From assembly GCA_964355675.1 (NCBI GenBank), contig CAYHEC010000014.1, positions 1,110 to 65,109 of the forward strand: a DNA stretch of 64,000 bases, written 5' to 3'. Below the pieces are notes generated by a model. That model searched no databases and was not told the DNA's origin. It saw nothing but the letters and a program-made list of their open reading frames with translations. Positions 3-50,712 of this stretch are shown here, in pieces (positions within the stretch are counted from its first letter, which is position 1; each line of letters starts with the position of its first letter). A program made the position numbers and the translations under genes. This DNA is from an uncultured Caldithrix sp. Its GTDB lineage: Bacteria > Electryoneota > AABM5-125-24 > Hatepunaeales > Hatepunaeaceae.

Positions 3-2660
3 ATGCTCGATCAGTATGCGGCAATCAAAAGCAAGTTTGCCGACGCCATACTGTTTTACCGTATGGGAGATTTTTACGAGATGTTTTACGATGATGCGAA
101 AGCCGCCTCGGAGATTCTCGGTCTTCGTTTGACCTCCCGCGCACACGGCAAAGGCTCGAATGTTCCCCTTGCTGGATTCCCTTATCACCAACTCGATTCC
201 TACCTGAACAAGATGGTCGAAGCAGGTCGTCGCGTCGTTATTGTCGAGCAGGTCGAAGATCCTAAGAAAGCCAAAGGTCTGGTAAAACGAGACGTCGTCA
301 AGATTGTCACAGCCGGGACAAATCCCGCCATGATCGATAGCGACAATCCCAGATCAAGCCGGATTATCGGCTTAATTAAACATGATAGCCGCTGGGGACT
401 TGCCTGGGCAGACATAGGTTCAGGAGAATTTGCCGCCGGTGAATTCGACCATGCCGGCTTAAGAGAAGTTCTCGGACGCATCGATCCGATTGAGATTGTT
501 GTCCCTGCCGGTTCCCCGGAAATAGGGCCAACTCCTGCTGGAGGAAGCCTGCCCCAGGTGATTAGCAAGCAGGAAGATTGGATATGGGAGACCGCATTTG
601 CAAATCGAACATTGCTCGATCATTTCGGAACGGTCGGCTTAAAGGGCTTCGGTATCGATGGGTTGCCTCTGGCGGTTTCTGCGGCGGGGGGCCTGCTATA
701 TTATCTCAAACAAAACCTCAAGAGCCACCCAGCTCACATTACCCGCTTGGCGCTGGAAGAAGCAGGCGGCAAATTGCAGATGGAAAAGGCGATCCGGAAA
801 AATCTTGAGCTTGTCGATTCGCTTTCCGGTAATCATCGCGCCACTCTCTTTTCCTACTGCGACCGAAATGTAACCCAATCCGGAAGACGGCTTCTTCATA
901 ATAGATTGATTGAGCCACTGGCGAACAAAAATCTGATCGATGAACGGCTCGATGCCGTAGCAGAGCTTGTACAGAAGAAAAACCTTCGTGATAAAGTTCG
1001 AGTCCAACTTCGCGAGGCGGGAGATCTGAGTCGCGGATTGGCACGATTGGCCACCGGTCGTGGATCAGCGCGAGATTTGGTTGCTCTACGGGAAACACTG
1101 GCTCTCTTGCCCAAGATTCAAGCAACGTGTGGCTCATCAGACTCACCACTCACCCAATGCTGGGTGAGCCGAATTGCTCTCCTGCCAGAATTGGCTGAAA
1201 AACTTAAAGTGGCGTTGTTGGATGATCCTCCGCTTGCCACCAATGAGGGTGGAATGATTCGAGCCGGGTACGATGCTCAAGTTGACGATTTGCGCGATAT
1301 CCGGTCGGGAGGACAATCATGGCTCGAGCAGTACGAGCGAACCCAACGAGCCGAGACCGGCATTTCCAACCTCAAGATCGCCTACAACCGGGTCTTTAAC
1401 TACTACATCGAGATCACCAAAAGCCACCTCGATAAGGCTCCAGCCACTTACATTCGCCGCCAGACGCTTGTTAATGCTGAGCGTTACACCACCCCTGAAC
1501 TTCAGGCTTACGAAGAAAAACTCATTTCTTCTGAAGAACTTGTCACAGCCCGCGAGTCTGAAATTTTCGCTGAATTGGCGAGTGAAACCCTTACTCATTC
1601 AAAATTAATTCAAGAAACCGCTCAAGCACTGGCCGAGATCGACTTCCTTTCCGGCTTGGCTCAACTTGCCGCTGAAGAGAATCTCCATCGACCAGAACTT
1701 GTGGAAGGGGACACTCTAATTCTTAAAGGCTCTCGCCACCCGGTCGTCGAAAAACTGTTGCCACCCGGGGAGTTGTTCGTTCCCAACGACCTGAACGTCG
1801 GCGGCGATTCTGCTCGCATTCTGATCATCACCGGTCCCAATATGGCAGGCAAGTCAACCTATCTCCGTCAAGTCGCCCTGACTGTAGTGATGGCGCAAGC
1901 CGGATCGTTTGTCCCAGCCGACAAGGCAGTGATCGGCGTCGTCGATAAACTATTCACTCGCATCGGCGCGATGGATAACCTTGCCGGAGGGGAGTCAACC
2001 TTCCTTGTCGAGATGCAAGAGACTGCCTCGATCCTGAACAACGCCACCCGCCGGTCACTGGTGCTATTCGATGAAGTCGGCCGAGGCACTTCGACCTTCG
2101 ACGGACTCAGCCTTGCCTGGGCGATTGTCGAATATCTGCACGAGACCGACCGGCTCAAACCCCGCACTCTTTTCGCCACCCACTTCCACGAAATGGTCGA
2201 TCTGGAGAACATCCTTGCCGGGGTGAAGAACTTCAACGTCGCGGTCCGGGAGGTGGGGGATAAGATAGTCTTCTTGAGGAAGATTGTCCCGGGAGGCTCT
2301 GACCACAGCTTTGGAATTCACGTTGCCCAGATGGCGGGCATTCCCGCTGAGGTGACCAGCCGGGCACGCGAAATTCTTGCCAACCTTGAAGCCAACGACT
2401 TAAATCCAGTTGCCGCCGATCCCGTAGGACGGGCGTCCCTGCCCGTCGATTCAGGAGGATGGGCGTCCCTGTCCGTCGAGGAGGATTCTCCTCGCTCTCG
2501 CCGTCGCTCACCGCAGAAGCACATCGCGCAGTTGTCGTTCTTCGATCCGATTGAGCGCAGGCTTCGTGACCGGCTGGAGGGCGTCGATCCCGACAAGCTG
2601 ACCCCGCTCGAGGCGCTGAAGCTGGTAGTAGAACTGAAGAAATTAGATGGGGGCGCGTAG
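3..2660 (+). CDS. mutS: DNA mismatch repair protein MutS (N-terminus cut by window edge)
   Basis: 885-aa ORF entering from the window edge. Mismatch-binding motif GDFYEMF, Walker A GPNMAGKST, MutS signature STFLVEMQE/DEVGRGTSTFDG. Two in-frame hairpin-repeat copies lie at 2424-2477 in the C-terminal linker. Confidence 0.97.
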   Translation: MLDQYAAIKSKFADAILFYRMGDFYEMFYDDAKAASEILGLRLTSRAHGKGSNVPLAGFPYHQLDSYLNKMVEAGRRVVIVEQVEDPKKAKGLVKRDVVKIVTAGTNPAMIDSDNPRSSRIIGLIKHDSRWGLAWADIGSGEFAAGEFDHAGLREVLGRIDPIEIVVPAGSPEIGPTPAGGSLPQVISKQEDWIWETAFANRTLLDHFGTVGLKGFGIDGLPLAVSAAGGLLYYLKQNLKSHPAHITRLALEEAGGKLQMEKAIRKNLELVDSLSGNHRATLFSYCDRNVTQSGRRLLHNRLIEPLANKNLIDERLDAVAELVQKKNLRDKVRVQLREAGDLSRGLARLATGRGSARDLVALRETLALLPKIQATCGSSDSPLTQCWVSRIALLPELAEKLKVALLDDPPLATNEGGMIRAGYDAQVDDLRDIRSGGQSWLEQYERTQRAETGISNLKIAYNRVFNYYIEITKSHLDKAPATYIRRQTLVNAERYTTPELQAYEEKLISSEELVTARESEIFAELASETLTHSKLIQETAQALAEIDFLSGLAQLAAEENLHRPELVEGDTLILKGSRHPVVEKLLPPGELFVPNDLNVGGDSARILIITGPNMAGKSTYLRQVALTVVMAQAGSFVPADKAVIGVVDKLFTRIGAMDNLAGGESTFLVEMQETASILNNATRRSLVLFDEVGRGTSTFDGLSLAWAIVEYLHETDRLKPRTLFATHFHEMVDLENILAGVKNFNVAVREVGDKIVFLRKIVPGGSDHSFGIHVAQMAGIPAEVTSRAREILANLEANDLNPVAADPVGRASLPVDSGGWASLSVEEDSPRSRRRSPQKHIAQLSFFDPIERRLRDRLEGVDPDKLTPLEALKLVVELKKLDGGA

Positions 2661-2951: not shown

Positions 2952-4202
2952 ATGGAACTATCTGATAATTTTAATATTGACGACGTCTCTAACCTCGAAA
3001 TCTACGCCTCGCATCTCCTCCGTGCCGGGAGACCTTATGTCGAATATGTACAATCATCGCCCGAATCCGGCTGGCTTTGCAATGACAATGGCAAGCTGAG
3101 ACTTTGCCGCACCCTTTCCATCGCCGGTCGGCAGATCCAGCCGAGACACGGACTCTCCCGCTTGATCGCTTCCGGAGTCATCTCTTCCCCCGCGACAGCC
3201 GATGACAGCCACTCCCTTGACGACCTTTTCGAAGCCGTTCGCGACTGGCTCGCCACCCTTGTCGCCTTTGAGTGCGATTATCACTACACCGCCGCCGCGG
3301 CTTATGTCGTCATTACTTGGTTCGACTTTCTTTACGATGCATTGCCCTACCTTCGCTTTTTGGGCGATTTCGGTTCCGGCAAAACCACCGCTCTCCGCGC
3401 CATGAGTCAACTCTGCTATCGTGCTTTCGCCATATCCGGAGTCGTCAACCCGGCGCCGCTTTTCCGCATAATCCAGGGTGCGAAAGGCACTCTCGCTATC
3501 GACGAAGCCGACCTGAGGACCGGTGAAGTTGCCCGCCTCCTCACAAAAATCCTCAACCACGGCTACACGCGAGGCATTTCGGTTATCCGCCTCTCGTCCC
3601 GTCGCGAAACGGAGGTTTTCGATCCGTTCGGTCCCAAGCTGATCGCCGCGCGCCGTGAGTTTTCCGACGAGGCTCTGGAGAGCCGTTTTCTAACCGTAAG
3701 AATGAAGTCTCGCAAAGACTCGCTTGTGCCATTGTCGGATTCTGACACGATGAAGCGCGCCGCTTTGATTCGCAACGGCTTACTTTTCTGGAGGATGAAT
3801 TATTCTTGTGTTAAGACCGGGCTGAGCCTTTTTCGTCATGGATCGGCGGTTGTGAGGGATGGTTATGAGCCAAGGCTTGCGCAGATTGCGAAGCCGCTTT
3901 TCGACTGTACGCCGGCGTCGCGTCAGAGGGAGTTGGATCAGTTCTTTGAGGTGTTGAATGTGCGGATGGTCGAGATGCGTGCGGGCGGTCTTGAGGCGTA
4001 TCTCAAGGGGATTATAAGACGGGCAAACGAGATTGGAACTTACACACTGCACTTCAACCAGATTTACATGAGCCTAAGTCCCAATTTGCGGCGTCTATAT
4101 TCGAAGCGTCATGTATCTCGAGTGCTGGAGATTCTCGGCTGCGAGCGCCGCCACGGCCGCGACGGCACTTACGTCACCTGGAGTAGCGATGCTCTTGCGT
4201 AG
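2952..4202 (+). CDS. P-loop NTPase, DUF3631-like (primase/integrative-element associated family)
   Basis: 416-aa ORF. Walker A GDFGSGKTT, Walker B-like GTLAIDEAD, then ILNHGYTRG. The order and spacing recall DUF3631 proteins (recognised from memory, not searched). The TAG stop lies inside the GTAG head of the first downstream repeat. Confidence 0.5.
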   Translation: MELSDNFNIDDVSNLEIYASHLLRAGRPYVEYVQSSPESGWLCNDNGKLRLCRTLSIAGRQIQPRHGLSRLIASGVISSPATADDSHSLDDLFEAVRDWLATLVAFECDYHYTAAAAYVVITWFDFLYDALPYLRFLGDFGSGKTTALRAMSQLCYRAFAISGVVNPAPLFRIIQGAKGTLAIDEADLRTGEVARLLTKILNHGYTRGISVIRLSSRRETEVFDPFGPKLIAARREFSDEALESRFLTVRMKSRKDSLVPLSDSDTMKRAALIRNGLLFWRMNYSCVKTGLSLFRHGSAVVRDGYEPRLAQIAKPLFDCTPASRQRELDQFFEVLNVRMVEMRAGGLEAYLKGIIRRANEIGTYTLHFNQIYMSLSPNLRRLYSKRHVSRVLEILGCERRHGRDGTYVTWSSDALA

Positions 4203-4765
4203 GGGCCGGTTTACCGAGCCCAACTCTCGCGCAGGGCCGGTTTACCGAGCCCAACTCTCGCGTAGGGGCCGGTTTACCGAGCCCAACAAATCCCCCTCCG
4301 TAGGTCGGGCCGCCGAGCCCGACAACCGGTACGACAGACTTTAGTCTGTCACCTTATTCTTTTTGGATTGGGCGATAGCGAGCATCATTCTGTTTGGATC
4401 GGGCGATGGCGAGCATCGCCCGTACGGGCGAACCTTGTGTTCGCCCTCTCTATTTACGCGGCAATCCCCGTACAACAGGCGTCCCCGCCTGTCTCCTCAT
4501 CATCCCGGCGCACACCGGTAAGGCCGACAGTTGTCGGCCTCCCAATTTCTAAAAGGCAGGGCGGATAGTTATCCGCCTCGGCGCTAAAGGCGCGCCATCT
4601 CCCCCCGCTTGCGGGGTGCGACTCCATTGAATGGAGTCGCGAAAAGGATGCACTTGAAATGGTTTCGTTCAAAGGGGGGTGTCATAAGCTGTCAACCCTC
4701 TGGGGTTGACATCGGCCGGAGGCTCCGCCGTCACCGCCCTGTCGGTGACGGTACTGCGGGGCTCC
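4197..4765. repeat. About 570-bp ORF-free stack of roughly 17 consecutive GC-rich hairpins of different sequence
   Basis: Three copies of GTAGGGGCCGGTTTACCGAGCCCAAC (4199-4287). GTAG-GTCGGGC..GCCCGAC (4300-4323). GTAC-GACAGAC-ttta-GTCTGTC (4329-4351). GGGCGATG..CATCGCCC-GTAC-GGGCGAAC..GTTCGCCC (4401-4447). GTAC-AACAGGCGTCCCCGCCTGT (4469-4492). GGCCGACAgtTGTCGGCC (4522-4539). GCGGATAgtTATCCGC (4561-4576). CCCCGCTTGCGGGG (4603-4616). GCGACTCCATtgaATGGAGTCGC (4618-4640). GTCAACCCtctgGGGTTGAC (4691-4710). CCGTCACCG..CGGTGACGG (4728-4751). Confidence 0.85.
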
Positions 4766-4860
4766 GTACCCGTTAGATTCATCCTGAACGCAGTGAAGGA
4801 TCTCTATTTCATAGTCATTCTGGCAAAATTGATACTACGATCCTGTGAAATCATTCTTTT

Positions 4861-5118
4861 TCAGCGAACAAATTTTGAAAAGCGACTATCGATAGACAAG
4901 GGCGTGGAATGCTCGATATCAGGGTCACCAACAGCCTCCTCAATGGCAGTTCGCATTACAATGCTCTGTGCCGCACCCAACCCTGCTTGTAGTCCCTTCT
5001 TAACAGCATGGAGTTCGTCCGCCGTAAGCGTCCTGCCAATTCTCTCCAACGCCTCAGCTTGTGCGTCCATGACTTGGACGAGATAGAGGGACGATTTCGG
5101 TGAGAATTCATTGCTCAT
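4861..5118 (-). CDS. Hypothetical 85-aa protein, third gene of the R-M operon strand
   Basis: ORF begins 20 nt downstream of the nuclease stop on the same strand, with AAGG 11 nt upstream of the ATG. Helical-looking sequence with no recognisable motif. Confidence 0.4.
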   Translation of the reverse strand: MSNEFSPKSSLYLVQVMDAQAEALERIGRTLTADELHAVKKGLQAGLGAAQSIVMRTAIEEAVGDPDIEHSTPLSIDSRFSKFVR

Positions 5119-5137
5119 AATTCATGTACCTTATAGT

Positions 5138-6193
5138 TCAGATGAATCTCAACTGGAAGTTGTTCGAATGAGCTTCTTCAATCAGTTTATTATATAGTTG
5201 TCGTTGACTCGCAGATAGATTTATCACGTTAAAACCGAGAGCAGTTGACAGTTTAAGTACCGGAATTACTGCATATTCTCTATGACCGATGAACACGCAG
5301 TGAAGATTTGTAAAAAGCACCATTTTAATAATGCCGTCCTTAATGTCATCCTCTGACGGCATGGCTCCATGCTTTGTGTGTTTTGCTTCAATAAGCCTAA
5401 CGTCAGAACCTGTGATTTCACATTCATCTAATGTCAGGCTATATTCACCTCCGAGATAGTTGATCACTGTGATCGATGCCTTTTGACCTTCCACAGATTC
5501 TTTGGGTTGAAGAGTCACTATTTCACGCTGTTGTGCGCTACGAGCAAGAAATCTGGATCTTGCAAGAAAAGTCTCACGGCTCATATAAATCTCTTCAAGT
5601 TTACGCACGGCGGATTTTCTGTTGTGCATTGAGATTCCTAAACTGGCCCCAATTCTATCGTAGAATTGAAGAGATTTTTGGCATACCGATTCCAAGCGAT
5701 TTGGATCGGTCTGCTCAATATTCCAATGCAGTGCATCAGACTGGCAATCCATTAGATTGGATAGTTGTTGACGGATATATTCCATATTGAATTGCTGATG
5801 AGATATTTTCCCTTGATATCGAGTGCTTGCGATTGCGTTGTCATAGTATGCAATGATAACGTTCACGCCGAGCAAACTCATCAAGCAAATTGTATCCCAT
5901 TGGAGGAAATCCCGATCACCTTCTCCACCTTCGTCTTTCATAACGGGGATTATTGTGACCTTCTTCCCTGTAAAACCGTAAGTGTTGTATACGCGAGCAT
6001 ACGGATAAGAGCGGGTTCTTTTCGGTGATACCCACCTACTTACCGCAATTTTCCCTTTTACTCCAAAATCGAGAAGAAACGATGCATCTCGCGATTCGAA
6101 GGCCTGCACCATTGACTCAATGAGATAGGTGTGTAGATCGTTACACATCAAAGGACGATATATAACACTCTTAATTTTGCCCGTAACTTCCAT
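5138..6193 (-). CDS. Putative type II restriction endonuclease (PD-(D/E)xK)
   Basis: The start is placed at the internal ATG 6193 (MEVTGK...), which has GGAGG 9 nt upstream and overlaps the methyltransferase 3' end by 23 nt. C-terminal motif LDECEI...VRLIEAKH fits D-Xn-E-x-K. AT-rich like its partner. Confidence 0.6.
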   Translation of the reverse strand: MEVTGKIKSVIYRPLMCNDLHTYLIESMVQAFESRDASFLLDFGVKGKIAVSRWVSPKRTRSYPYARVYNTYGFTGKKVTIIPVMKDEGGEGDRDFLQWDTICLMSLLGVNVIIAYYDNAIASTRYQGKISHQQFNMEYIRQQLSNLMDCQSDALHWNIEQTDPNRLESVCQKSLQFYDRIGASLGISMHNRKSAVRKLEEIYMSRETFLARSRFLARSAQQREIVTLQPKESVEGQKASITVINYLGGEYSLTLDECEITGSDVRLIEAKHTKHGAMPSEDDIKDGIIKMVLFTNLHCVFIGHREYAVIPVLKLSTALGFNVINLSASQRQLYNKLIEEAHSNNFQLRFI

Positions 6194-7082
6194 GTCGGAT
6201 ATCCTCCAGTAAAGATTTAAACTGTTCTTTCGACAACCTCCTATCCAAATCACGAGACAGGTCTCGCGTTCTCACGTCAACGGCGAAAAAATCGCTGTTA
6301 CTCATTAGATCAGGCAAACCGACTTTCTTTCGAATTATTTCTTGAAGTTCCGATTTTATTTCAAATCCGACACTATTACGTCCGAGCAAACGTGCTACTT
6401 TCATCGTAGTTCCGCTTCCTGCAAATGGATCTAGAACTATTTCTCCAGTATATGAGTAGAGCTTTATTAGGCGATAGGGCAACTCTTCCGGAAATGCTGC
6501 TACGTTTTTCTCTAGAACAGCTCCAGGAAGCACGTTTGTCATTTCCCAGAGAGTCATGTACCATTTTTTCTGTTGGAATTCTGCTTTATCTATCATAGAT
6601 GATATGCGGACATCCTGCGGAATAGACTTGTATTCGAATTTTCCCTTTTGAAAAATAATTATACTCTCCAGCAGATTATCTGGATAAAAGTACATCGGAT
6701 AGGGATTTTGGAGAATAACTCCACTTCTGCGACTAATCCGAAGATAACCGTCTGGCTTCTTCCATATAAGCCTATCCCTGTAACGAAAGCCTGCTCGCTG
6801 AAAAATTTTCGTTGCATCAGCAGTGATTGGGAATTTCTCTCCTTTTACTAACATATCATCGATATTAAGAGCTACGATCCGTCCGGGCTGTAACACCCGA
6901 TAGACCTCTTGCGCTACATTGTACAAGACTTCTAAATAATGGTCATACGTATCATACAGTCCCTCGTAATCGAAAGGAGCATTGAAGTACGGCGGAGATG
7001 TGACCATCAAATGCACGCTCTCGTTTTCAAGCTCTTGCATTGACTGACAATCACCGATAATCAATTTATGTGATGTTCCCAA
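6171..7082 (-). CDS. Beta-class N4/N6 DNA methyltransferase (SPPY type, possibly m4C)
   Basis: 303 aa. Motif IV TSPPY is near the N-terminus and motif I DPFAGSGTT near the C-terminus (beta-class order). TTG start with AGGAAA upstream. Confidence 0.85.
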   Translation of the reverse strand: MGTSHKLIIGDCQSMQELENESVHLMVTSPPYFNAPFDYEGLYDTYDHYLEVLYNVAQEVYRVLQPGRIVALNIDDMLVKGEKFPITADATKIFQRAGFRYRDRLIWKKPDGYLRISRRSGVILQNPYPMYFYPDNLLESIIIFQKGKFEYKSIPQDVRISSMIDKAEFQQKKWYMTLWEMTNVLPGAVLEKNVAAFPEELPYRLIKLYSYTGEIVLDPFAGSGTTMKVARLLGRNSVGFEIKSELQEIIRKKVGLPDLMSNSDFFAVDVRTRDLSRDLDRRLSKEQFKSLLEDIRHGSYGQN

Positions 7083-7813: not shown

Positions 7814-7889
7814 TGCTACCAAGCCCTGATTTCAGTATATTAACAGGTTAAGTCATTCCAAAATCCAAATTCCAAAATCCAAAACTATA

Positions 7890-10658
7890 ATGTCCGAAAT
7901 TCCAAAGAGCTACGATCCGACCTCCGTCGAGCCGAAGTGGTACAAATTCTGGGAAGAGAACGACCTCTTCCGCACCGATCCGAACTCCGGCAAGGAGCCG
8001 TACTGCATCATGATGCCTCCGCCGAACGTCACCGGCGAACTTCACATGGGGCACGGCTTGCAAGACTCCCTGCAGGATATGCTGATCCGCATGAAGCGGA
8101 TGCAGGGCTTCGAGGCGCACTGGCAAGCCGGAACCGATCACGCCGGCATCGCTACCCAGAACGTCGTCGAGAAAGCGCTCGCCAAGGAAGGCGTGTCGCG
8201 CCACAGCCTCGGCCGGGAGAAGTTCATCGAGAAGGTCTGGGAGTGGAAAGCCAAGTACGGGGACAGGATACTCCAGCAGAAGCGGCTCTTAGGTGACTCG
8301 CCGGACTGGAGCCGCGAACGGTTCACCTTCGATCCGGGGCTTTCCAAAGCCGTGGCGAAGGTGTTCGTGCATCTCTATGACAAGGGGCTGGTGTATCGGG
8401 GGAATTACATCGTCAACTGGTGTCCGCGCTGTCACACGGCGATCTCTGACGAGGAAGTCGATCATAAGGACGAAGCGACGCATTTGTGGTATTTCAGGTA
8501 TCCGATTTTAAATGATTCTTCCGTCGCCGCCCCGTCGGCGATGGATACTGATACACCTGCTGCCACCCACAGGGGGGTGGCAGAAGAGGGACACTACGTG
8601 ACTGTGGCGACGACGCGCCCTGAGACGATGCTGGGCGATACGGCGGTGGCGATCAATCCCAAAGACGAACGATTGCAGCATCTTCGCGGGAGGAGCGTGC
8701 AGCTCCCATTGGTGGATAGAGTTATCCCGATCATTGAAGACGAGTTCGTCGATCCGGCTTTTGGGACGGGGCAGGTGAAAGTGACGCCTGCTCATGATCC
8801 GAACGACTTTGAGATGGGGAAGCGCCACAGCCTCGGATCCATCACAGTGATGGACGAGCATGGGGTAATGAATGATAACGCTGGTCGTTTCAAAGGATTG
8901 GATAGGTTCAAGGCGCGTGAGGCGATTGTGGAGGCGATGGGGGAGGCGGGGTTGTTGGAGAAGATAGAGGATTATACTACCTCCATTGGCCACTGCTCGC
9001 GGTGCAAGACGGTCATCGAGCCGTACCTCTCTCTGCAGTGGTTCGTGAAGATGAAGCCACTCGCCGAGCCTGCCCTTGAGGCTGTTCGTGACGGGCGGAT
9101 CAAGTTCTATCCGGGACGTTGGGAGAAGGTCTATTACTCATGGCTGGAGAACGTGCGGGACTGGTGCATCTCGCGGCAGCTTTGGTGGGGGCATCGGATA
9201 CCGGTGTGGTACTGCCAGGCTTGCGGGGAGGTGATTGTCAGGGAAGAGGAGCCTGATACTTGTCCGAAGTGCCACTCGAACAGTCTCAGGCAGGATGAGG
9301 ATGTGCTCGATACGTGGTTTAGTAGCTGGCTCTGGCCATTTTCAACCTTGGGGTGGCCCGAAGAGACGCCTGAGCTTAAAAAATGGTATCCGACGCAGTT
9401 GCTCGTTTCGGGCTATGACATCATCTTCTTCTGGATCGCGCGGATGATTATGGCGGGGCTGGAATTCATGGGCGACATCCCGTTCAGCGACATCTTCATT
9501 ACGGGCATGATTAAGGACGAGCAGGGGCGGTGGATGTCGAAGTCGCTCGGCAATGGCATCGACCCGGAGGCGATGGTCAAGCAGTACGGGGCCGACGCGG
9601 TGCGGTTCACTATGATAACGCTGGCGACGGAGGGGCAGGACATCAAGCTAACGCCGTCGCGGTTTGAGGGAGGGAGGAATTTTGCCAATAAACTGTGGAA
9701 TGCGTACCGGTTTCTGATGACTCATGTGGAGAAACTGCCTGAGGAAAATAGGAGCCAAATTGGCAAGTATCCAATCACTGAGATGCCTTCCGATGCTCCC
9801 CTCGTGGATCGGTGGATTGTCTCACGACTGGCGGCGACGGTCGAACAGGTTCATGCGTCGGCGGAGAAGTACCGGTTGTTTGAGTGTCTTAACGCCCAGT
9901 ATGATTTCCTCTGGAAGGAGTTCTGTGACTGGTATCTGGAGCTTATTAAAAACCGGTTGACGCCTGAGACTCCGGCATTTGACCGTCAGTTGACGCTTGA
10001 GGTCGCGTTGCAGGTATTCGAAGCGGCGATGCGGCTGTTGCATCCGGCGATGCCGTTTGTGACGGAAGAGATTTGGCAGGGAGTTTCAGCACAAGTAGCG
10101 TTGACAATTGTCAACGCTACTGCAACTCAGAAGTCGATTATGGTGGCGGAATATCCGAAGCCGGGGGAATATCCAAGGGACTTGAAGGCTGAGGAGCAGA
10201 TCGAGTTGTTCCAGCGTGTCGTTGCGGCAGTCAGGAACATTCGTGGCGAAATGCATGTTCCACCCGACCGGAGGGCAGTACTGGTAGTGTCGGGCGTGAA
10301 AGATGAAGGGAAGAAGATGTTATTTGAGCGGCTGTCAAGTGATATTTGTCGTCTCGCAAACTTGTCGGAAATCAGCTTTGGCAACTCTCGCCCGGCACAC
10401 TCAGCTTCGGCAATGATAGATGATTTCGAGCTGTTTGTGCCGTTGGAAGGCTTGATCGACATCACGGTAGAACAAGGGAGACTCGACAAGGAGATTGCGA
10501 GACTTGAAGGCTCGATCAAAGGCGCTGAGGCAAGGCTTGCTTCGCCAAACTTCACTGACAAGGCTCCGGCGAATGTGGTGGAGTTTGAGCGGCAGAAGTT
10601 GGTGGAGTCGAAGGCACAGCTTGAGGCGGTGAAAAGGAATAGGGAGGCGTTGGAATGA
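7890..10658 (+). CDS. valS: Valine--tRNA ligase
   Basis: 922 aa. HIGH motif (PPNVTGELHMGH), KMSKS motif (WMSKSLGN), ValRS segment ATTRPETMLGDTAV, C-terminal coiled coil. Carries an in-frame hairpin-containing insertion at about 8520-8600. Confidence 0.97.
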   Translation: MSEIPKSYDPTSVEPKWYKFWEENDLFRTDPNSGKEPYCIMMPPPNVTGELHMGHGLQDSLQDMLIRMKRMQGFEAHWQAGTDHAGIATQNVVEKALAKEGVSRHSLGREKFIEKVWEWKAKYGDRILQQKRLLGDSPDWSRERFTFDPGLSKAVAKVFVHLYDKGLVYRGNYIVNWCPRCHTAISDEEVDHKDEATHLWYFRYPILNDSSVAAPSAMDTDTPAATHRGVAEEGHYVTVATTRPETMLGDTAVAINPKDERLQHLRGRSVQLPLVDRVIPIIEDEFVDPAFGTGQVKVTPAHDPNDFEMGKRHSLGSITVMDEHGVMNDNAGRFKGLDRFKAREAIVEAMGEAGLLEKIEDYTTSIGHCSRCKTVIEPYLSLQWFVKMKPLAEPALEAVRDGRIKFYPGRWEKVYYSWLENVRDWCISRQLWWGHRIPVWYCQACGEVIVREEEPDTCPKCHSNSLRQDEDVLDTWFSSWLWPFSTLGWPEETPELKKWYPTQLLVSGYDIIFFWIARMIMAGLEFMGDIPFSDIFITGMIKDEQGRWMSKSLGNGIDPEAMVKQYGADAVRFTMITLATEGQDIKLTPSRFEGGRNFANKLWNAYRFLMTHVEKLPEENRSQIGKYPITEMPSDAPLVDRWIVSRLAATVEQVHASAEKYRLFECLNAQYDFLWKEFCDWYLELIKNRLTPETPAFDRQLTLEVALQVFEAAMRLLHPAMPFVTEEIWQGVSAQVALTIVNATATQKSIMVAEYPKPGEYPRDLKAEEQIELFQRVVAAVRNIRGEMHVPPDRRAVLVVSGVKDEGKKMLFERLSSDICRLANLSEISFGNSRPAHSASAMIDDFELFVPLEGLIDITVEQGRLDKEIARLEGSIKGAEARLASPNFTDKAPANVVEFERQKLVESKAQLEAVKRNREALE

Positions 10659-12271
10659 TTATGCCAGAACTTCAAACAAATGTCCTCTACTACGGGGATA
10701 ATCTTGAGGTCTTGAGAGATCAAATTCCTAATGAATCAATTGATCTCATATACCTTGACCCTCCGTTCAATTCTAAGCAGTCATACAGTGTCCTATTCCG
10801 CGAATCGTCGGGAGCTGCAAGTGAAGCTCAAATCGAAGCATTCGAGGATACTTGGCAATGGACTATAGACGGCCAGGCACCCAAAGCCTACGACGCTATC
10901 ATGACCGGGCCGAGGCAGGACGTTGCGAGCTTGTTAGGCGCTATGGTGCAAGGACTTGGTCGCAATCAAGTTACATCCTATCTCTGCATGATGACGGTCA
11001 GACTGGTGGAACTGCACCGTGTTCTGAAAGCGACGGGGAGCCTTTACCTTCATTGTGATCCAACCGCTGGAGCCTATCTTCGAGTTATTCTCGACGCGAT
11101 TTTTGAGCCAGTCAACTTTCGCAACGAGATCATTTGGAAGCGAACATCGGCTCACAACGACCCAAGGAAATACGGAGCGAATATTGACGTAATCTGGTAT
11201 TACGTGAAGAGTAGTAAGAACACTTGGAATGATGTTTTCACTGAGCATCGTGAAGAGTATCTCAAGCGATTCACTCATAGAGACTCAGATGGTCGAGCAT
11301 GGCAAGACGGCCCGCTGACAGCAAAGGGACTGACTGGCGGAGGATATACCTATGAGTATAAAGGTATTAAAGGATTCTGGCGCTGTCCTCTGGCAACAAT
11401 GGAAAGGTATGACAAAGAAGGGCTCTTGCACATCACAAATAGGAATGGAATACGGATAAAGCGCTATCTTGATGAAACTGAAGGTGTGATACTTCAATCA
11501 CTCTGGACAGACATCCCACCTGTAAATTCACAAGCTAAGGAGCGATTGGGTTACAATACTCAAAAGCCTCAAGCCTTGCTCGAGAGAATAGTTTCAGTTT
11601 CATCCAATCCCGGTGATATCGTCCTTGATCCATTTTGCGGTTGTGGTACCGCACTTCACGCCGCCCACAAGCTTGACCGTAAATGGATAGGAATTGACGT
11701 AACTTATCTCGCAATCAACCTTATCGAACGAAGAATGCGTGATGCTTTTCCTGGCGTCCCGATTCATGTCGATGGTGCTCCAGCTGATACAGCCAGTGCT
11801 CACGATCTTGCTCGCAGAGACAAGTATCAATTTCAATGGTGGGCACTCGCCAAGATCGACGCTCAACCAGTATCAGGCAAGAAGAAAAAGGGTGCGGACA
11901 AGGGCAAAGACGGAGTTATTCCTGTTTTTATGGATGCTGAAATCAGTTATAGGAACGCGATAGTTTCCGTTAAGGGCGGCGCAGATCGCGACGTAAGTGA
12001 TATAAGGGACTTGAACGGAACTATGTTGAGAGAAAACACACCGTTTGGTGTTCTTATTACGTTGTTTCCGCCAACCAAACCAATGATAACTGAAGCGGCA
12101 TCGGCGGGACTCTATGAAAGTGAATTCTGGGGTAGAAAATTTCCTAGGATTCAAATTCTATCAGTCGAAGAGATCTTTCAAGGGAAACGTCCGAATCTTC
12201 CCAAAGGCAAATCGCCTTATGCAAAAGCTCCGGTTGAAAAAACGGTCAATGGAAATCTCAATTTAGATTGA
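10655..12271 (+). CDS. Beta-class DNA methyltransferase fused to a C-terminal Mrr-like PD-(D/E)xK domain
   Basis: 538 aa. Motif IV LDPPF (N-terminal) and motif I DPFCGCGTA. The C-terminal ~150 aa carry GADKGKDGVI...VSVKGG, resembling the Mrr catalytic core (D-G-x-D ... x-K). The start ATG overlaps the valS TGA (ATGA). Confidence 0.7.
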   Translation: MIMPELQTNVLYYGDNLEVLRDQIPNESIDLIYLDPPFNSKQSYSVLFRESSGAASEAQIEAFEDTWQWTIDGQAPKAYDAIMTGPRQDVASLLGAMVQGLGRNQVTSYLCMMTVRLVELHRVLKATGSLYLHCDPTAGAYLRVILDAIFEPVNFRNEIIWKRTSAHNDPRKYGANIDVIWYYVKSSKNTWNDVFTEHREEYLKRFTHRDSDGRAWQDGPLTAKGLTGGGYTYEYKGIKGFWRCPLATMERYDKEGLLHITNRNGIRIKRYLDETEGVILQSLWTDIPPVNSQAKERLGYNTQKPQALLERIVSVSSNPGDIVLDPFCGCGTALHAAHKLDRKWIGIDVTYLAINLIERRMRDAFPGVPIHVDGAPADTASAHDLARRDKYQFQWWALAKIDAQPVSGKKKKGADKGKDGVIPVFMDAEISYRNAIVSVKGGADRDVSDIRDLNGTMLRENTPFGVLITLFPPTKPMITEAASAGLYESEFWGRKFPRIQILSVEEIFQGKRPNLPKGKSPYAKAPVEKTVNGNLNLD

Positions 12272-12980: not shown

Positions 12981-13001
12981 GTGCGATACGTGCAAGAACG
13001 T

Positions 13002-13245
13002 GGGGGCTCGTAAACGGCCCCTACGCGACGAAGGGAGGGCATGTAAACGGGAGGGCTCGTAAACGGCCCCTACGCGACGAAGGGAGGGCATGTAAACGGG
13101 AGGGCATGTAAACGGAGGGCACGTAAACGGCCCCTACGCGACGAAGGGAGGGCATGTAAACGGGGGGCTCGTAAACGGGGGGCACGTAAACGGCCCCTAC
13201 GCGGGATGACGAATAGAGGGGGGGCTCGTAAACGGCCCCTACGCG
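13002..13245 (+). repeat. Tandem array of family-A repeats (GGGGCTCGTAAACGGCCCCTACGCG and truncated variants)
   Basis: About ten GTAAACGG cores in 244 bp. The full unit is a bulged hairpin GGGGC(T)CG-TAAA-CG-GCCCC followed by CTAC (a GTAG head on the other strand). Confidence 0.9.
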
Positions 13246-13269
13246 GGGATGAAACTCACAATAAATTGA

Positions 13270-14652
13270 ATGGTACCAATGCCAACAAAACTATCACTTG
13301 CGTCAGCGCTTCTGCTAAGCTCCATTTTCCATTTTCCATCTTCCATTAAAGCCGAAGTCGCCGTTACCATTTACAACCAGAACCTCGCCCTCGTCCGCGA
13401 GGTGCGCCAGCTTGACTTCCCCAAGGGCGTCGGCCAACTCCGCTTCACCGACGTCGCGTCGGAGATTATCCCGACGTCAGTGCACTTCACCAGCGACAAA
13501 GCCGCACTCCTCGAGCAAAACTACGAGTACGACCTCGTGAGTTCGGACAAACTGCTCGAGAAATACATCGATCAACGGGTGGAGATTGTTTCGCTTGACG
13601 GCAAGAGCTTTTTCGGGTCGTTACTATCGTCGGGAGGGGATATTGTGCTAAGGTTAGATGGTGGGACACCCCCCCCTGCCCCCCCCGCAAGCGGGGGGGG
13701 AAAGTCTGGCGAATTGGTCTCGATTACCCGTTCGCAGGTTGCCAATGTCCGGTTCCCTGAGCTACCGGAAGGACTCATCACCCGCCCGACACTAGTCTGG
13801 CTGGTCGATGGCAAGGGCGGCAAGAGCGACGCTGACATCTCCTACCTGACGAGAGGAATCTCGTGGGAATCGGAGTATGTTGCCGTCTCGGACGTAAAGG
13901 ACGAAAACCTCTCACTGACCGGGTGGGTGAACATTACGAATAATTCCGGGGCGACGTACAAGGATGCGCGGTTGAAACTGATGGCAGGGGACGTGAATAT
14001 CGAACAGCCTCGAAGAAAATTCGCACGCGACGAAGTTCAAGAATTGTCAGGCGGATTTAATGCTGAATACGGTTTTCAAGAACAAGCGTTTTACGAGTAC
14101 CACCTCTATACCCTTCAGCGTCCCTCGACCATCGCCGACAAGCAGGTGAAGCAAGTGTCGCTGTTTCCGACGGCTTCAACGCCGGTGAAGAAGGAATTCC
14201 GACTCAAGGCGAACGAGGAAAAGGTTACAGTTGTCCTTGAGTTTGAAAACCGTGAGAAGGTCGGGCTGGGCATACCGCTTCCCAAGGGGAAGGTGCGGGT
14301 CTATAAGCAGGGTCCTGATGGCGGGCAGGAATTCATCGGCGAAGACAACATCGACCATACTCCCAAGGATGAAAAAGTCCGCATCACGACCGGTAAAGCG
14401 TTTGATATTGTTGGCGAGCGGAAATCGATCAACTACGAGCGCCAAGGCAAACAGCGTGAGAATGAGATTGTCGTCCGCAATCATAAGAAGGAGACCATCG
14501 AGGTTGTCATCGAAGACTCGTTCTGGGGGGATTGGAAATTTATCGAAGCGACCGACGGCTGGGAGAAGAAGAATGCCAGCCTCGTTGAGTGGAAAGTGAA
14601 GATCAAGCCGGACGGGGAGGCGAAGGTTAGGTATAAGGTTTATGTTAATTAA
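13270..14652 (+). CDS. Secreted DUF4139/DUF4140-like protein
   Basis: 460 aa with a signal peptide. VTIYNQNLALVRE...LEQNYEYDLVS resembles the DUF4139 family (from memory). The internal low-complexity patch GGTPPPAPPASGGGKSG is encoded by a hairpin repeat at 13681-13698. Confidence 0.55.
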   Translation: MVPMPTKLSLASALLLSSIFHFPSSIKAEVAVTIYNQNLALVREVRQLDFPKGVGQLRFTDVASEIIPTSVHFTSDKAALLEQNYEYDLVSSDKLLEKYIDQRVEIVSLDGKSFFGSLLSSGGDIVLRLDGGTPPPAPPASGGGKSGELVSITRSQVANVRFPELPEGLITRPTLVWLVDGKGGKSDADISYLTRGISWESEYVAVSDVKDENLSLTGWVNITNNSGATYKDARLKLMAGDVNIEQPRRKFARDEVQELSGGFNAEYGFQEQAFYEYHLYTLQRPSTIADKQVKQVSLFPTASTPVKKEFRLKANEEKVTVVLEFENREKVGLGIPLPKGKVRVYKQGPDGGQEFIGEDNIDHTPKDEKVRITTGKAFDIVGERKSINYERQGKQRENEIVVRNHKKETIEVVIEDSFWGDWKFIEATDGWEKKNASLVEWKVKIKPDGEAKVRYKVYVN

Positions 14653-16390: not shown

Positions 16391-16412
16391 AGAAGTGGAC
16401 GAATCGTTAGAA

Positions 16413-16681
16413 GGGGGCTCGTAAACCGGCCCCTACGCGGATGATTGGTTGGTGGTGCATGGCCGGGGCTCGTAAACGGCCCCTACGCGGGTGATTGGTT
16501 GGTGGTGCATGGCGGGGGCTCGTAAACGGACGGGGCTCGTAAACGGACGGGCTCGTAAACGGACGGGCTCGTAAACGGCCCCTACGCGGGTGGCACGTAG
16601 ACAGACGGGGCTCGTAAACGGCCCCTACGCGGATGATTGGTTGGTGGTGTATGGCCGGGGCTCGTAAACGGCCCCTACGCG
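16413..16681 (+). repeat. Second tandem array of family-A repeats
   Basis: About nine GGGGCTCGTAAACGG(CCCCTACGCG) units in the same orientation as the 13002-13245 array, interspersed with a repeated spacer GATGATTGGTTGGTGGTGCATGGCC. Confidence 0.9.
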
Positions 16682-16694
16682 ATTGAGTTGAAAT

Positions 16695-16734: not shown

Positions 16735-18933
16735 ATGGCAAAATCTAACAACATAGGTGTCAACGGCAGAGCGTTGACAGCTTCCGGGGTCACTGCCACC
16801 CGCAGGGGGGTGGCAGAAGTTCCTGCATCTTCCGTCACCCCCCCGCGGGTGACGGACAAACTCAAATGGAACGACCCCGTCGCTCTGGTAAAAGGGCTTG
16901 GCGAACAGCGCGCCGAATTCCTTGTCTCGCAAGGATATGCCACCATCGGCGATTTGCTGATGCGTGCACCGCTTCGCTACATCGACCGCCGACAATCGCC
17001 ACCATTTTCCACGTTGACGACGCCTTCCGCTGGTGAGATCAGCGCCGTCGGCGTCATCGAAGCAGTCGGCGAGAAAGGGTTCGGTCGAAAAAGGCGACTG
17101 ATCTGCATTATTTCGGATGGGACGGGAATCGTGCAAGGGGTCTGGTTCAAGAATTATCATTTTTACAAGCCGGAATTGACTCCGGGTCGAAAGATTGCCT
17201 TGAGTGGCAGGATTACCATATTCGACGGTCCGCAGATCACTCACCCGAAGGTGACTTACCTTGACGGTGACCGGAATCTGCCTGGTGAAGCGTCGCTGGT
17301 GCCGGTCTATCCTTCGGGTGATGAGTGGGAGAAAGCCGGACTTTCCAAGCAAGTGTGGCCCCGATTGATCGCCAAAGTCATTAAAGATTGGGATGGAGAA
17401 GGTCCGTACCTGCCGGAGAATATCCGTGGTCTCTGCAAATACCCGACACTCCGCGATGCGGTTACTGCATTACATCAACCCAACGGGCTTGAGGATTTCG
17501 ACCGGGGTCTGGAGGCGCTGAAATTCACTGAGCTTTATCATCATCAATTGCTAATGGTTGTTTTGCGCAGGCGAAGAAGGCAGGGCGATGGAATTGTCAT
17601 CGGGTCGCAAGGCGAAAGATTTCCCTTATTCTTGAGACAATTACCGTTTGAACTCTCGCCGAGTCAACAGGAAGTGTTGGGTGAGATTAGTGAAGACTTC
17701 TGCTCGGGTCACCCCATGCATCGATTGTTGCAGGGGGAAGTCGGGTCGGGGAAGACTGTGGTCGCGCTGGCGGCGGCGGTTCATTCGGCTGATTCAGGCT
17801 ATCAGACTGCCATGATGGCTCCGACGGAAATACTTGCCCGGCAACACTATAAGAACGCAATCGAGTATTGCGAACCGGTCGGGATGAAAGCCGTCATGAT
17901 CAGCGGGGGGCGAGACGCCGACGAAAACCGACGAGCGCTTTTCGAGGCGTCGGTCGGTAAGGCTGATATTATTATCGGCACGCATGCCCTGTTTCAAGCT
18001 CGCGTCGAAATGCCTCGCCTCGGTTTGGCGGTGATCGACGAGCAACATCGGTTTGGAGTTCGGCAACGAGCGTTGCTGGTTGGCAAGGGAGTGCGGCCGC
18101 ACGTCCTGTTAATGTCGGCGACGCCTATTCCGAGGACGTTAGCGCTGGCTCATTACGGGGATCTTGAGTTGTCATTTCTGAAGCCTCCCCCCGGCATCGA
18201 AAGGCGCGTAAAAACACGTATCGTCAATGATTCGCGTCGTGATAAAGTATTCGGTTGGTTAAAGGAAGAATTGAAGAAGGGGCGTCAGGGATTTCTCGTT
18301 TTTCCAGTGATCGACGAAAGCGCAACCGGTCTTGAAGCCGCTGAAGCTCGTTATATTCCGTACAGTACGATCGACTTCAAAGGAATTCCGACGGCGCTTA
18401 TTCATGGGCGGATGCCGATCGATGAGCGGGTTAGGGTGATGGATTCGTTCCGTAGGGGGGATGTGAAGCTACTGATGACGACTTCGGTGATCGAAGTCGG
18501 AGTTGACGTGGCGGAAGCAACGATTATGGTTATCGAAAACGGCGAGCGGTTCGGGTTGTCCCAGCTTCATCAACTTCGTGGAAGAGTAGGAAGATCGGGC
18601 AGAACGGGAACGTGTGTAATTATCTCTTCGGAACGAGAGGGGCAGACAGGATTCGAACGAATCCGTAAACTCGAGACGACTTCTGACGGGTTAGAGCTTG
18701 CTGAGGAGGATCTGAGGCAAAGAGGGGCGGGTGACCCGCTTGGAGCGCGACAGAGTGGCTGGGTAAAATTCAAGCTTGCCGATCTGACAATGGATTACAA
18801 ATTATTAGAAAAGGCGCACCTTTCAGCGCTGGAAACGCTGGATACATGGCCAGACCTCGAACCCTTCCCAGAGATAAGAGCCAAATTGAAGCAGGAATAT
18901 CGCAATAGACCGAAGACGATGTTGGCGGGGTGA
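16735..18933 (+). CDS. recG: ATP-dependent DNA helicase RecG
   Basis: Walker A GEVGSGKT, DEQH box VIDEQHRFG, motif VI HQLRGRVGRSG. The first 38 codons are built from three hairpin repeats, so an alternative GTG start at 16849 is plausible. Confidence 0.93.
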   Translation: MAKSNNIGVNGRALTASGVTATRRGVAEVPASSVTPPRVTDKLKWNDPVALVKGLGEQRAEFLVSQGYATIGDLLMRAPLRYIDRRQSPPFSTLTTPSAGEISAVGVIEAVGEKGFGRKRRLICIISDGTGIVQGVWFKNYHFYKPELTPGRKIALSGRITIFDGPQITHPKVTYLDGDRNLPGEASLVPVYPSGDEWEKAGLSKQVWPRLIAKVIKDWDGEGPYLPENIRGLCKYPTLRDAVTALHQPNGLEDFDRGLEALKFTELYHHQLLMVVLRRRRRQGDGIVIGSQGERFPLFLRQLPFELSPSQQEVLGEISEDFCSGHPMHRLLQGEVGSGKTVVALAAAVHSADSGYQTAMMAPTEILARQHYKNAIEYCEPVGMKAVMISGGRDADENRRALFEASVGKADIIIGTHALFQARVEMPRLGLAVIDEQHRFGVRQRALLVGKGVRPHVLLMSATPIPRTLALAHYGDLELSFLKPPPGIERRVKTRIVNDSRRDKVFGWLKEELKKGRQGFLVFPVIDESATGLEAAEARYIPYSTIDFKGIPTALIHGRMPIDERVRVMDSFRRGDVKLLMTTSVIEVGVDVAEATIMVIENGERFGLSQLHQLRGRVGRSGRTGTCVIISSEREGQTGFERIRKLETTSDGLELAEEDLRQRGAGDPLGARQSGWVKFKLADLTMDYKLLEKAHLSALETLDTWPDLEPFPEIRAKLKQEYRNRPKTMLAG

Positions 18934-20098: not shown

Positions 20099-20347
20099 AT
20101 GATCGGTAGCGCAGCGATTTATCGCGCTCATATTGAGATTGGGACGATAGGCGCGATAAATCGCTGCGCTACCAGCACACCCATAGGCGCGATAAATCGC
20201 TGTGCTACCAGCACTCATAAGCGCGATAAATCGCTGCGCTACCAGCACTCATAGGCGCGATAAATCGTTGTGCTACCAGCACACCCATAGGCGCGATAAA
20301 TCGCTGTGCTACCAGCACCCATAGGCGCGATAAATCGCTGTGCTACC
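20099..20347. repeat. Family-E repeat array (GTAGCGCAGCGATTTATCGCGCC)
   Basis: One forward copy (ATGATCGGTAGCGCAGCGATTTATCGCGC), a 19-nt spacer, then six reverse copies (ATAGGCGCGATAAATCGCTGYGCTACCAGCAC) with a 34-37 bp period. Confidence 0.9.
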
Positions 20348-20445
20348 AGTCAAAAATGTCACAGAAATGTATGGATGCCGGCTTTCGCCGGTATGAGAGC
20401 ATTTCGGGTATATTTCACTTTCTCGGACAGTCTCGAATGTCAGGT

Positions 20446-44572: not shown

Positions 44573-44573
44573 A

Positions 44574-44692
44574 GCCGATTCAAATCGGCGGTATTAACGA
44601 AGAAGAATTCAGCACTGCCGATTCAAATCGGTGGTACTAACGAAGAAGAATTCAGTACTGCCGATTTAAATCGGCAGTACTAACGAAGAAAA
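44574..44692 (+). repeat. 43-bp tandem repeat (2.8 copies) filling the murC-murB gap
   Basis: The unit GCCGATTCAAATCGGCGGTATTAACGAAGAAGAATTCAGCACT occurs at 44574, 44617 and 44660. The last copy forms a 28-nt perfect palindrome AGTACTGCCGATTTAAATCGGCAGTACT. Confidence 0.92.
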
Positions 44693-44694
44693 CA

Positions 44695-46469: not shown

Positions 46470-46524
46470 GGCTAAGGCTAAGGTCAAGGTTAAGGTCAAG
46501 GTTAAGGTTAAGGTTAAGGTTAAG
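46462..46524 (+). repeat. Hexanucleotide microsatellite, 10.5 units of AAGGYY
   Basis: aaggtt aaggct aaggct aaggtc aaggtt aaggtc aaggtt x4 aag. It spans the ftsQ stop and ends 22 nt before the ftsA ATG. Confidence 0.95.
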
Positions 46525-46546
46525 AACAGGAATTCCGGGAGGAATT

Positions 46547-47803: not shown

Positions 47804-47820
47804 GGTGTCGTCATCTGGAT

Positions 47821-48101
47821 ATGATCGGTAGCGCGGCGATTTATCGCGCCATTCGTCCCAAACGGCATTACAGGCGCGATAAATCGCTGCGCTACCGCAA
47901 CCATCAGTTATAGGCGCGATAAATCGCTGCGCTACCGCAACCATCAGTTTTAGGCGCGATAATTCGCTGCGCTACCGCAACCATCAGTTATAGGCGCGAT
48001 AAATCGCTGCGCTACCGCAACCATCAGTTTTAGGCGCGATAATTCGCTGCGCTACCGCAACCATCAGTTACAGGCGCGATAAATCGCTGCGCTACCGCAA
48101 C
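47821..48101. repeat. Family-E repeat array between ftsA and ftsZ
   Basis: One forward copy ATGATCGGTAGCGCGGCGATTTATCGCGCC, a 20-nt spacer, then six reverse copies at an exact 40-bp period (47871 to 48071). They alternate two variants, giving an 80-bp higher-order repeat. Same architecture as 20099-20347. Confidence 0.93.
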
Positions 48102-50576: not shown

Positions 50577-50712
50577 GTTTTCAGTACGACAGACATTCTT
50601 GTCTGTCACAAAATACAATACTTTAGACAATCTCTGTTTTCGGAGACAGACAGGAATGTCTGTCGTACTGAAAACAACTTAGTATTAGGACGGACAGGAG
50701 TGTCCGCCCTCC
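50577..50712. repeat. Inverted pair of family-H repeats plus one family-D hairpin
   Basis: GTTTTCAGTACGACAGACATTCTTGTCTGTC (50577-50607) with its reverse complement at 50645-50675 (one mismatch). GGACGGACAGGAGTGTCCGCCCTCC at 50688-50712. Confidence 0.88.

Follow-up and report, generated by a model that had tools for sequence, protein, structure and literature searches.

The stretch of DNA considered here comprises 64,000 nucleotides from an uncultured Caldithrix sp. (contig CAYHEC010000014.1, positions 1,110 to 65,109; in the following called the window) and carries, between the end of a P-loop gene and a block of minus-strand genes, a stack of hairpins located at 4199-4770. With a probability of about 0.78, this stack is a cluster of repetitive extragenic palindromic (REP) sequences of the GTAG-tagged superfamily, in which GTAG- and GTAC-tagged units are mixed, to which a few untagged palindromes are added and which accumulated passively where its units were tolerated. 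This reading builds on the architecture that most of the units have in common, on the recurrence of their families in the window and in related sequences, and on genes for REP-associated tyrosine transposases (RAYTs) that were found beside units of the same families on other contigs (sequences other than the window are given as L numbers).

The existence of the stack had been predicted from the sequence as such, where it was described as about 17 hairpins in a region free of open reading frames (ORFs), and this observation was confirmed. A simple scan for perfect hairpins (stem of at least 7 bp, loop of 2-10 nt) identified 11 of them between 4304 and 4751, to be compared with a window mean of 0.82 per 570 bp and with 0.32 +/- 0.57 (maximum 4) in 1000 dinucleotide-preserving shuffles of the stack region. 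Once bulged and shorter stems were included, 18 units were obtained, which together cover 400 of 572 nt and 15 of which are robust, the remaining ones being I and L, with weak 5-bp stems, and D1, a truncated copy (Table 1). The units span 4199-4770, so that the stack extends beyond the end at 4765 given originally. Folding of the region is far more stable than that of its shuffles, both as single-stranded DNA (z = -9.8) and as RNA (z = -8.3 for the plus and -7.2 for the minus strand), whereby the predicted fold is a string of local hairpins and not one global structure.

Eleven of the 15 robust units possess one of four tetranucleotides 5' of the stem, namely GTAG (A1, A3, B), GTAC (C, D2, E, F, N), GTAA (G) or GCAG (A2, H), and when read on the strand on which this tag comes first, most units consist of the tag, a perfect GC-rich stem of 7-10 bp and a loop of 2-6 nt. 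The robust units are 14-27 nt long and 11 of them have perfect stems of 7-10 bp; the stem of family A contains a one-base bulge, as in the E. coli-type REP, while the other stack families are perfect palindromes, as in the S. maltophilia 'group 3' type (PMC8266576). Throughout the 64 kb, GTAC and GTAG were identified as the most enriched 4-mers directly before maximal perfect hairpins (GTAC, 5 versus 0.34 expected, p = 3e-5; GTAG, 5 versus 0.43, p = 9e-5), and in contigs of the lineage the tag extends to C-R-GTAC, with the C at -2 present in 34 of 39. Along the stack the units are oriented +,+,+,+,+,-,-,+,+,+,+ ... - and are separated by spacers of 2-25 nt, D2 and E forming the sole inverted (tail-to-tail) pair. 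As had been predicted, these two adjacent, opposed hairpins have a single GTAC in common, which is located at 4422-4425 and not at 4420-4423; since GTAC is palindromic, one tag can serve both of them.

For the GTAS-GACAGAC units, the eighth base pair, which was left free by the search pattern, turned out to be of Watson-Crick type in 119 of 136 copies among the matches listed, with all four pair types represented and 25% expected by chance, which identifies these units as real elements and not as chance matches. Related stems differ by double changes, as seen for GGGCGATG/GGGCGAAC and for GGCGGATA/GGCGGACA/GGCGGATT. Judged from these comparisons, it is the pairing of the stem that is under constraint, hence structure rather than sequence. 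An enrichment of G-T wobble pairs among mismatched stems, which would favour a role at the RNA level, was not seen.

Table 1. Units of the hairpin stack and genes surrounding it, in window coordinates (tag and stem sequences are given on the tagged strand).
Feature	Position	Strand	Description
A1	4199-4221	+	GTAG tag, bulged palindrome GGGCCGG/CCGaGCCC
A2	4231-4252	+	tandem copy of A, degenerate tag GCAG
A3	4262-4284	+	third tandem copy of A, GTAG tag
B	4300-4323	+	GTAG + GTCGGGC cgccga GCCCGAC
C	4329-4350	+	GTAC + GACAGACT tt AGTCTGTC
D1	4356-4386	-	31-nt truncated direct-repeat copy of the D2 region, hairpin incomplete
D2	4400-4425	-	GTAC + GGGCGATG ctcgc CATCGCCC (minus strand)
E	4422-4446	+	GTAC + GGGCGAAC cttgt GTTCGCCC
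F	4470-4492	+	GTAC a ACAGGCG tccc CGCCTGT
G	4518-4540	+	GTAA + GGCCGACA gt TGTCGGCC
H	4556-4577	+	GCAG + GGCGGATA gt TATCCGCC; GGCGGA family
I	4580-4596	.	untagged, weak 5-bp hairpin GGCGC/GCGCC
J	4603-4616	.	untagged, CCCCGC tt GCGGGG, poly-C/G palindrome family
K	4618-4640	.	untagged, GCGACTCCAT tga ATGGAGTCGC
L	4654-4672	.	weak AT-rich 5-bp hairpin
M	4688-4711	.	untagged family, GCTGTCAACCC tctg GGGTTGACA
N	4728-4754	-	GTAC + CGTCACCG acaggg CGGTGACG (minus strand)
O	4750-4770	.	GGTACtG cggggct CCGTACC; 7-bp stem with one mismatch, GTAC in both arms
mutS	3-2660		upstream of the P-loop ORF
P-loop/STAND-like ORF, 416 aa	2952-4202	+	left flank; its end is the tag of unit A1
Right flank	4861-7082	-	three ORFs, converging on the stack
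85-aa ORF	4861-5118	-
371-aa ORF	5138-6253	-	family not recognised
N6/N4 DNA methylase	6171-7082	-
valS	7890-10658		downstream of the methylase block

The original prediction considered nearly every hairpin to belong to a different family and the elements to be unrelated, both of which had to be revised: A is present three times and D twice, D2 and E are a related inverted pair, leaving about 13 sequence families, and most units share the tag and the perfect stem and belong to families that recur. Further copies of A, B, C, F, H, J, M, N and O were identified in the window or in relatives. Within the window, family A forms arrays in reverse orientation at 12981-13269 and 16391-16690, C has two copies, at 50584 and 50645, that are inverted relative to each other and carry their tags on the outside, F has a second copy at 2732-2754, M a copy at 54734-54759 and N a related unit at 16831-16856, while J recurs at 13679-13700 and, together with a GTAG-tagged relative of H, directly after the mutS stop (H family, 2657-2680; J, 2683-2702). 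Outside the window, C was found in L084 and L085, relatives of F in L126, L144, L202 and L203, GTAG-tagged relatives of H in L086 and L178, a unit related to G in L085 (5932-5955), J in L098 (7-27), M twice in L098 and once in L171, and a perfect hairpin matching O by 96% in L165 (990-1013). Copies of B are present in L171 and L098, and the head-to-tail pair B->C was found again, linker included, in L171, L098 and L163, from which it follows that at least part of a stack is assembled from modules that already existed. When 1.4 Mb of unrelated control loci were searched, most stack families gave no match, and J and N gave two each.

Perfect hairpins are six-fold denser in intergenic DNA of the window (4.8/kb) than in coding DNA (0.78/kb). 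With 16.7 hairpins/kb the stack exceeds the average of the other gaps (Poisson p = 1e-4), and its density is equalled by the shorter gaps 54555-54841 and 44573-44694; it is the largest instance of a window-wide habit and not a unique object. The distribution of at least one of its hairpins reaches well beyond the window, as a metagenome scan for the unit C hairpin (GTAC-GACAGAC...GTCTGTC) returned at least 120 loci (L087-L206) on contigs of 25-66% GC, the loops and flanks of which group into lineage-specific subfamilies. The samples concerned comprise soil, freshwater and others, which is a very wide spread for a near-identical 7-bp stem plus tag.

Bulged GTAG-tagged REPs were also observed as tandem arrays which fill much of several intergenic gaps; next to the two ranges named above for family A, these are located at 20128-20349, 47804-48100 and 58850-59030. 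One of the bulged arrays is family A reversed, a second is made of GTAGCGCAGCGATTTATCGCGCC and a third of GTAGCCCGCACAGCTTTGCTGGG, a repeat also present at 33235, 33270 and 54700. Other gaps contain short tandem repeats, i.e., GGYTAA hexamers, GGTCGAT(G) and CCAAAAT-like units (46470-46530, 54555-54590, 7860-7889). Within valS, two perfect palindromes are carried in frame, at 8560-8583 (CTGCCACCCacagggGGGTGGCAG, with a near-identical copy at 16793) and at 10094-10121 (AGTAGCGTTGACAatTGTCAACGCTACT, with GTAG/CTAC within its stem). Alignment to ValS of the 84% relative places both of them in indel-rich variable loops, and they look like intragenic REP insertions.

The gap that harbours the stack (4203-4860) separates the P-loop ORF from the minus-strand gene block and is convergent. 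The stop codons of both mutS (2657-2660) and the P-loop ORF (4199-4202, with TAG at 4200-4202 in the tag of A1) are the TAG of a GTAG tag, in each case within GCGTAG, so that the REPs adjoin the original ends of these genes or may even have taken their place. The MutS protein is 60-63% identical to that of Calditrichota metagenome-assembled genomes, and closer uncultured relatives were identified with 84, 82 and 80%. Comparison of the interval between mutS and valS, as proposed earlier, revealed that these three closest relatives carry quite different genes after mutS, namely a nucleotidyltransferase/HepT pair, a secreted protein and Arr-ms followed by valS in L084, Arr-ms in L085 and an ABC transporter in L086, which characterizes the locus as an accessory hot spot; for the P-loop protein, identities to homologues do not exceed 46%. 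Stacks of their own, composed of these REP families, are present in all three, e.g., L085 5601-5958, which is likewise a convergent gap, and L084 14837-15426. An orthologous copy of the window stack was found in none of them, and the stack is hence not a conserved structured element. The earlier idea of a landing zone or safe haven is a fair description of the locus, as this is a convergent, gene-free gap in a variable interval. Multi-family head-to-tail stacks exist in other contigs as well, with six different units in L098 5129-5311 and further mixed stacks in L171 5684-5847, L163 1705-1750 and L085 (5601-5720 and 6525-6640). In L085, moreover, a composite of three REPs occurs in two copies that bracket a 176-aa ORF; this ORF was considered as a RAYT candidate and dismissed, as it gave no Pfam match.

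Genes for RAYTs (TnpA-REP), which are HUH-Y1 enzymes with folded single-stranded DNA as their substrate, were identified next to units of the window families on other contigs. The ORF at L206 9-479 scored 80.3 bits with the NCBIfam model REP_Tyr_transpos (NF047646; cut-off 80 bits) and 30.7 bits with Pfam Y1_Tnp, that at L209 40-480 (146 aa) scored 81.6 bits with REP_Tyr_transpos, and L160 carries a C-terminal RAYT fragment. The probe first used for tblastn, an E. coli RayT sequence, served as a lead only; the L206 and L160 matches were then confirmed with Pfam and NCBIfam, and the tblastn matches in L085 and L094 were recognized as spurious. GTAC-tagged REPs flank the L209 gene on either side; the L206 gene is preceded by such REPs at a distance of ca. 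80 nt, and the stop of L160 is followed by them after ca. 20 nt. L209 has the GC content of the window (0.52), and over 29-31 nt the REPs flanking its gene share 93% identity with window positions 50580-50672; their identity with a module of L084 is 96%. A RAYT-like gene was also observed in the AT-rich contig L207 (2700-3320), where it is apparently broken, only a 95-aa C-terminal part (Y1_Tnp) being called; GTAG-tagged hairpins of the GACAGA type lie within and around the upstream part of this gene.

RAYTs are described to bind the folded single-stranded hairpin, with a perfect stem being needed in the 'group 3' systems, and to be guided by the 5' tetranucleotide, which pairs with the cleavage dinucleotide (PMC8266576). 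In vitro, replacement of GTAG by GTAC shifted the cleavage site of the Marinomonas enzyme and left the S. maltophilia enzyme unable to cleave (PMC8266576). Published RAYT assays are confined to the E. coli, S. maltophilia and Marinomonas enzymes.

Considering this, formation of the stack may be pictured as follows. A RAYT encoded elsewhere in the genome would copy single REPs and small multi-REP modules, which would go into or beside existing REP sites and persist where they are harmless, i.e., after stop codons and above all in the convergent gap of the variable mutS-valS locus. Since insertions into a convergent gap of an accessory hot spot would not disrupt any promoter, many families could accumulate here, and local tandem duplication (A three times, D twice) would have added units. 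Transcripts of both converging units likely contain hairpins at their 3' ends, which may block 3' exonucleases or read-through, as was shown for E. coli REPs. By analogy with the latter, the hairpins may plausibly have a secondary role in which they protect or terminate the two transcripts; such an effect would be a by-product and not the reason for the stack.

Several points weigh against a RAYT-borne REP cluster. A RAYT gene was not found in the window (Pfam scan of 20 mid-size ORFs, motif regular expression and tblastn), so that for the source organism the enzyme is deduced from elsewhere, and the link to the transposase comes from other contigs, the organism of which is itself inferred to be related. 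As GTAC abolishes cleavage by the S. maltophilia enzyme, the GTAC units would require a differently tuned enzyme. I, J, K, L and M lack a tag, J and M being recurrent repeat families nevertheless, and for D, E, G and K a second copy was not found in the sequences examined (64 kb and related contigs); part of the stack may therefore have another origin. Most units are arranged head-to-tail, unlike the alternating units of classical bacterial interspersed mosaic elements (BIMEs), and neither transposition nor insertion polymorphism was observed.

A more specific version of the REP reading is put forward tentatively, and is itself rather doubtful: this lineage might host a subgroup of RAYTs with the self-complementary GTAC as a natural tag beside GTAG, and head-to-tail modules of different REP types, in effect cargo-less left- and right-end pairs of the kind known from the IS200/IS605 insertion sequences, might insert preferentially beside existing REPs. 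If true, a GTAC-RAYT with insertion of modules beside existing REPs would explain how a dozen families came to lie in one gap, and, given matches in contigs of 25-66% GC, the GTAC subgroup may extend to many other lineages.

Among the alternatives, a selected barrier or insulator, maintained between the converging transcription units for its action against read-through, collisions and 3' exonucleolytic decay, is unlikely. It would fit the convergent gap, the first hairpin of which starts inside the P-loop stop codon, the very stable RNA folding on both strands, and the hairpin density of convergent gaps (9.7/kb, versus 4.4 in tandem and 3.2 in divergent gaps); two publications further report that REPs stabilise mRNA and take part in termination (PMC3733652; PMC5317091). 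However, 11 of the 13 convergent-gap hairpins come from this one gap and no hairpin is present in two of the four convergent gaps. The same units are also located in divergent gaps, in tandem ones and within valS. Between 2500 and 8000, terminator-like sites with a T tail show no enrichment (10 versus 6.0 +/- 2.9 in shuffles), and weak T-rich tails are limited to C, E, H and the palindrome at the D2-E junction (4416-4431). The stacks of relatives, furthermore, differ and lie at different places, with no orthologous structure among them, and one or two hairpins would be enough for such a barrier, for which 17 hairpins of 13 families are not needed. Nothing specific favours an insulator or RNA-decay barrier, which is possible as an added effect and unnecessary to explain the data.

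Quite unlikely is an origin of the units from remnants or miniatures of IS200/IS605 elements, with their left- and right-end hairpins, or from several unrelated small repeat families, neither of which would make them RAYT-dependent REPs. The IS200/IS605 origin is the closest mechanistic rival, since the units mostly follow each other head-to-tail on one strand, as left and right ends do; the recurrence of B->C as a module and the five untagged units would suit it too, and RAYTs and IS200 transposases are related and have the guide-tetranucleotide logic in common (PMC8266576). Against this, no such transposase and no TnpB ORF was found in the window or beside the repeats examined, and the transposases that do neighbour the repeats score 80-82 bits with the RAYT model and 26-27 with the IS200 model, for which the cut-off is 55. 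The units are, moreover, singletons of 22-27 nt with a conserved 5' tag, as are REPs.

That the region is a gene for a small protein or a structured non-coding RNA is highly improbable. Several ORFs of 44-77 aa overlap the stack, the gene caller of one assembly predicted a 57-aa product within it, and the folding energy as RNA is strong. Yet the check by homology that had been called for returned neither a Pfam match for the three short ORFs scanned inside the gap nor an Rfam covariance-model match at E<=1 for 3500-5500, two tRNAs alone passing the gathering threshold in the whole window. The ORFs are made of repeat units that are present elsewhere in both orientations, the hairpins are independent and local and do not build one fold, and neither a protein-level homologue nor a multi-helix RNA supported by covariance was found in the relatives. 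Hardly credible, finally, is an assembly artefact by collapse or chimeric joining of repeats: although the source is a short-read metagenome assembly and other assemblies break nearby (Logan contig L211 ends in an 8-nt tandem repeat at ca. 2798, and the starts of L082 and L083 are at 7483 and 7741, respectively), window 1-20658 is covered without gaps and with 99.99% identity by a 23-kb contig from a separate ENA assembly (L081/L210). The stack is present and uncollapsed in this second assembly, so that, together with the negative Pfam and Rfam searches, both refuting conditions named for the original observation fail; in addition, the units differ from one another, making k-mer collapse unlikely, and similar stacks are present in unrelated samples.

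The preferred reading, a REP cluster of the GTAG-tagged superfamily, may be compared with known systems. GTAG REPs were reported with stems of 6-13 bp and loops of mostly 2-3 nt, in several families per genome and as singletons, dimers or groups; they cluster, prefer convergent and unidirectional gaps, supply TAG stops and are sometimes located inside genes, e.g., those of tRNA synthetases (PMC3733652). The stack resembles this superfamily (Di Nocera, De Gregorio and Rocco, 2013, PMC3733652; including the S. maltophilia SMAG) in its unpaired 5' tag followed by a GC-rich stem-loop, in the number of families, the gap preference, the TAG stops (mutS, P-loop) and the in-frame copies (valS). It differs in that about half of the tagged units carry GTAC, whereas the published variants are GYAG, GYRG, GTRG, GTMG and GTGG, in that about 13 families are found in 570 bp, whereas the published clusters are tandem reiterations of one unit or dimer, and in that Calditrichota is not among the phyla listed there for tagged REPs (PMC3733652). 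With the BIMEs of E. coli it shares mosaic REP types, short linkers, an extragenic position after genes and recurrent junctions (here B->C), but BIMEs have alternating orientation, regular spacing, two or three REP types and bulged stems, while the stack is mostly head-to-tail, has mostly perfect stems and comprises many more types. The inverted doublets D2/E and 50584/50645 and the presumed mobilisation by a RAYT recall REPINs, i.e., REP doublets (Bertels and Rainey, 2011, PMC3116915), although inverted doublets account for the smaller part of the stack and no single dominant REPIN population is visible in the 64 kb. The RAYT genes of L209, L160 and L206, flanked by GTAC REPs of window families, are similar to REPtrons (Nunvar, 2010, PMC2817692; Corneloup, 2021, PMC8266576), with the differences that none is present in the window and that the tag here is GTAC. 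For Caldithrix abyssi, an 18-nt palindrome (aAACCGTTgaAACGGTTt) was described (PMC5317091) which, like the stack, is REP-like and intergenic, comes from the same phylum and favours convergent gaps; unlike it, this palindrome has another sequence, is untagged, forms a single family of low copy number and has no reported transposase.

The REP cluster is thus of a known kind and its novelty is modest, consisting of the natural GTAC tags, of about 13 families placed mostly head-to-tail in 570 bp, and of the Calditrichota-related host, from which the literature consulted describes only the untagged 18-nt palindrome (PMC5317091). GTAC as a natural tag is absent from PMC3733652, and none of the literature searched brings GTAC, RAYT and REP together. 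Taken as a single locus, the stack is no more than what a known class of repeats ordinarily gives rise to. REPs are abundant and the mechanism of their spread is still poorly understood. To our knowledge, almost all work on REPs was carried out with Proteobacteria and GTAG tags. The 'guide tetranucleotide' model, by which the choice of the cleavage site is explained, has so far been based on mutants studied in vitro. It could be put to a natural test in a deep-branching uncultured lineage such as this one, where GTAC- and GTAG-tagged REPs with a dozen stem types are found side by side, move as modules, terminate genes with their tags and are located within valS. REP stacks furthermore break short-read assemblies and give rise to spurious small ORFs in metagenome annotation, both of which can be avoided when they are recognized.

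Some further observations concern the stack and its surroundings. The threefold array of A was considered as a CRISPR-like array and rejected, as it has no spacers and its unit is a tagged REP found elsewhere. A direct repeat GGCTCCG (4721-4727 and 4760-4766) brackets unit N and part of unit O; its interpretation as a target-site duplication around N was dropped, since a clean empty site could not be rebuilt, and the repeat may be the trace of a nested insertion or of a partial duplication. Next to the methylase gene at 6171-7082, a second N6/N4 DNA methylase ORF (538 aa, 10655-12271) was observed, which shares 4 nt with the end of valS and lacks an obvious endonuclease partner, so that valS lies between two methylase genes. 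A tandem array of an 8-nt unit (CCCACTTG / CCACTTAC), with about 12 copies and with the break of contig L211 inside it, is located at 2755-2845, upstream of the P-loop ORF.

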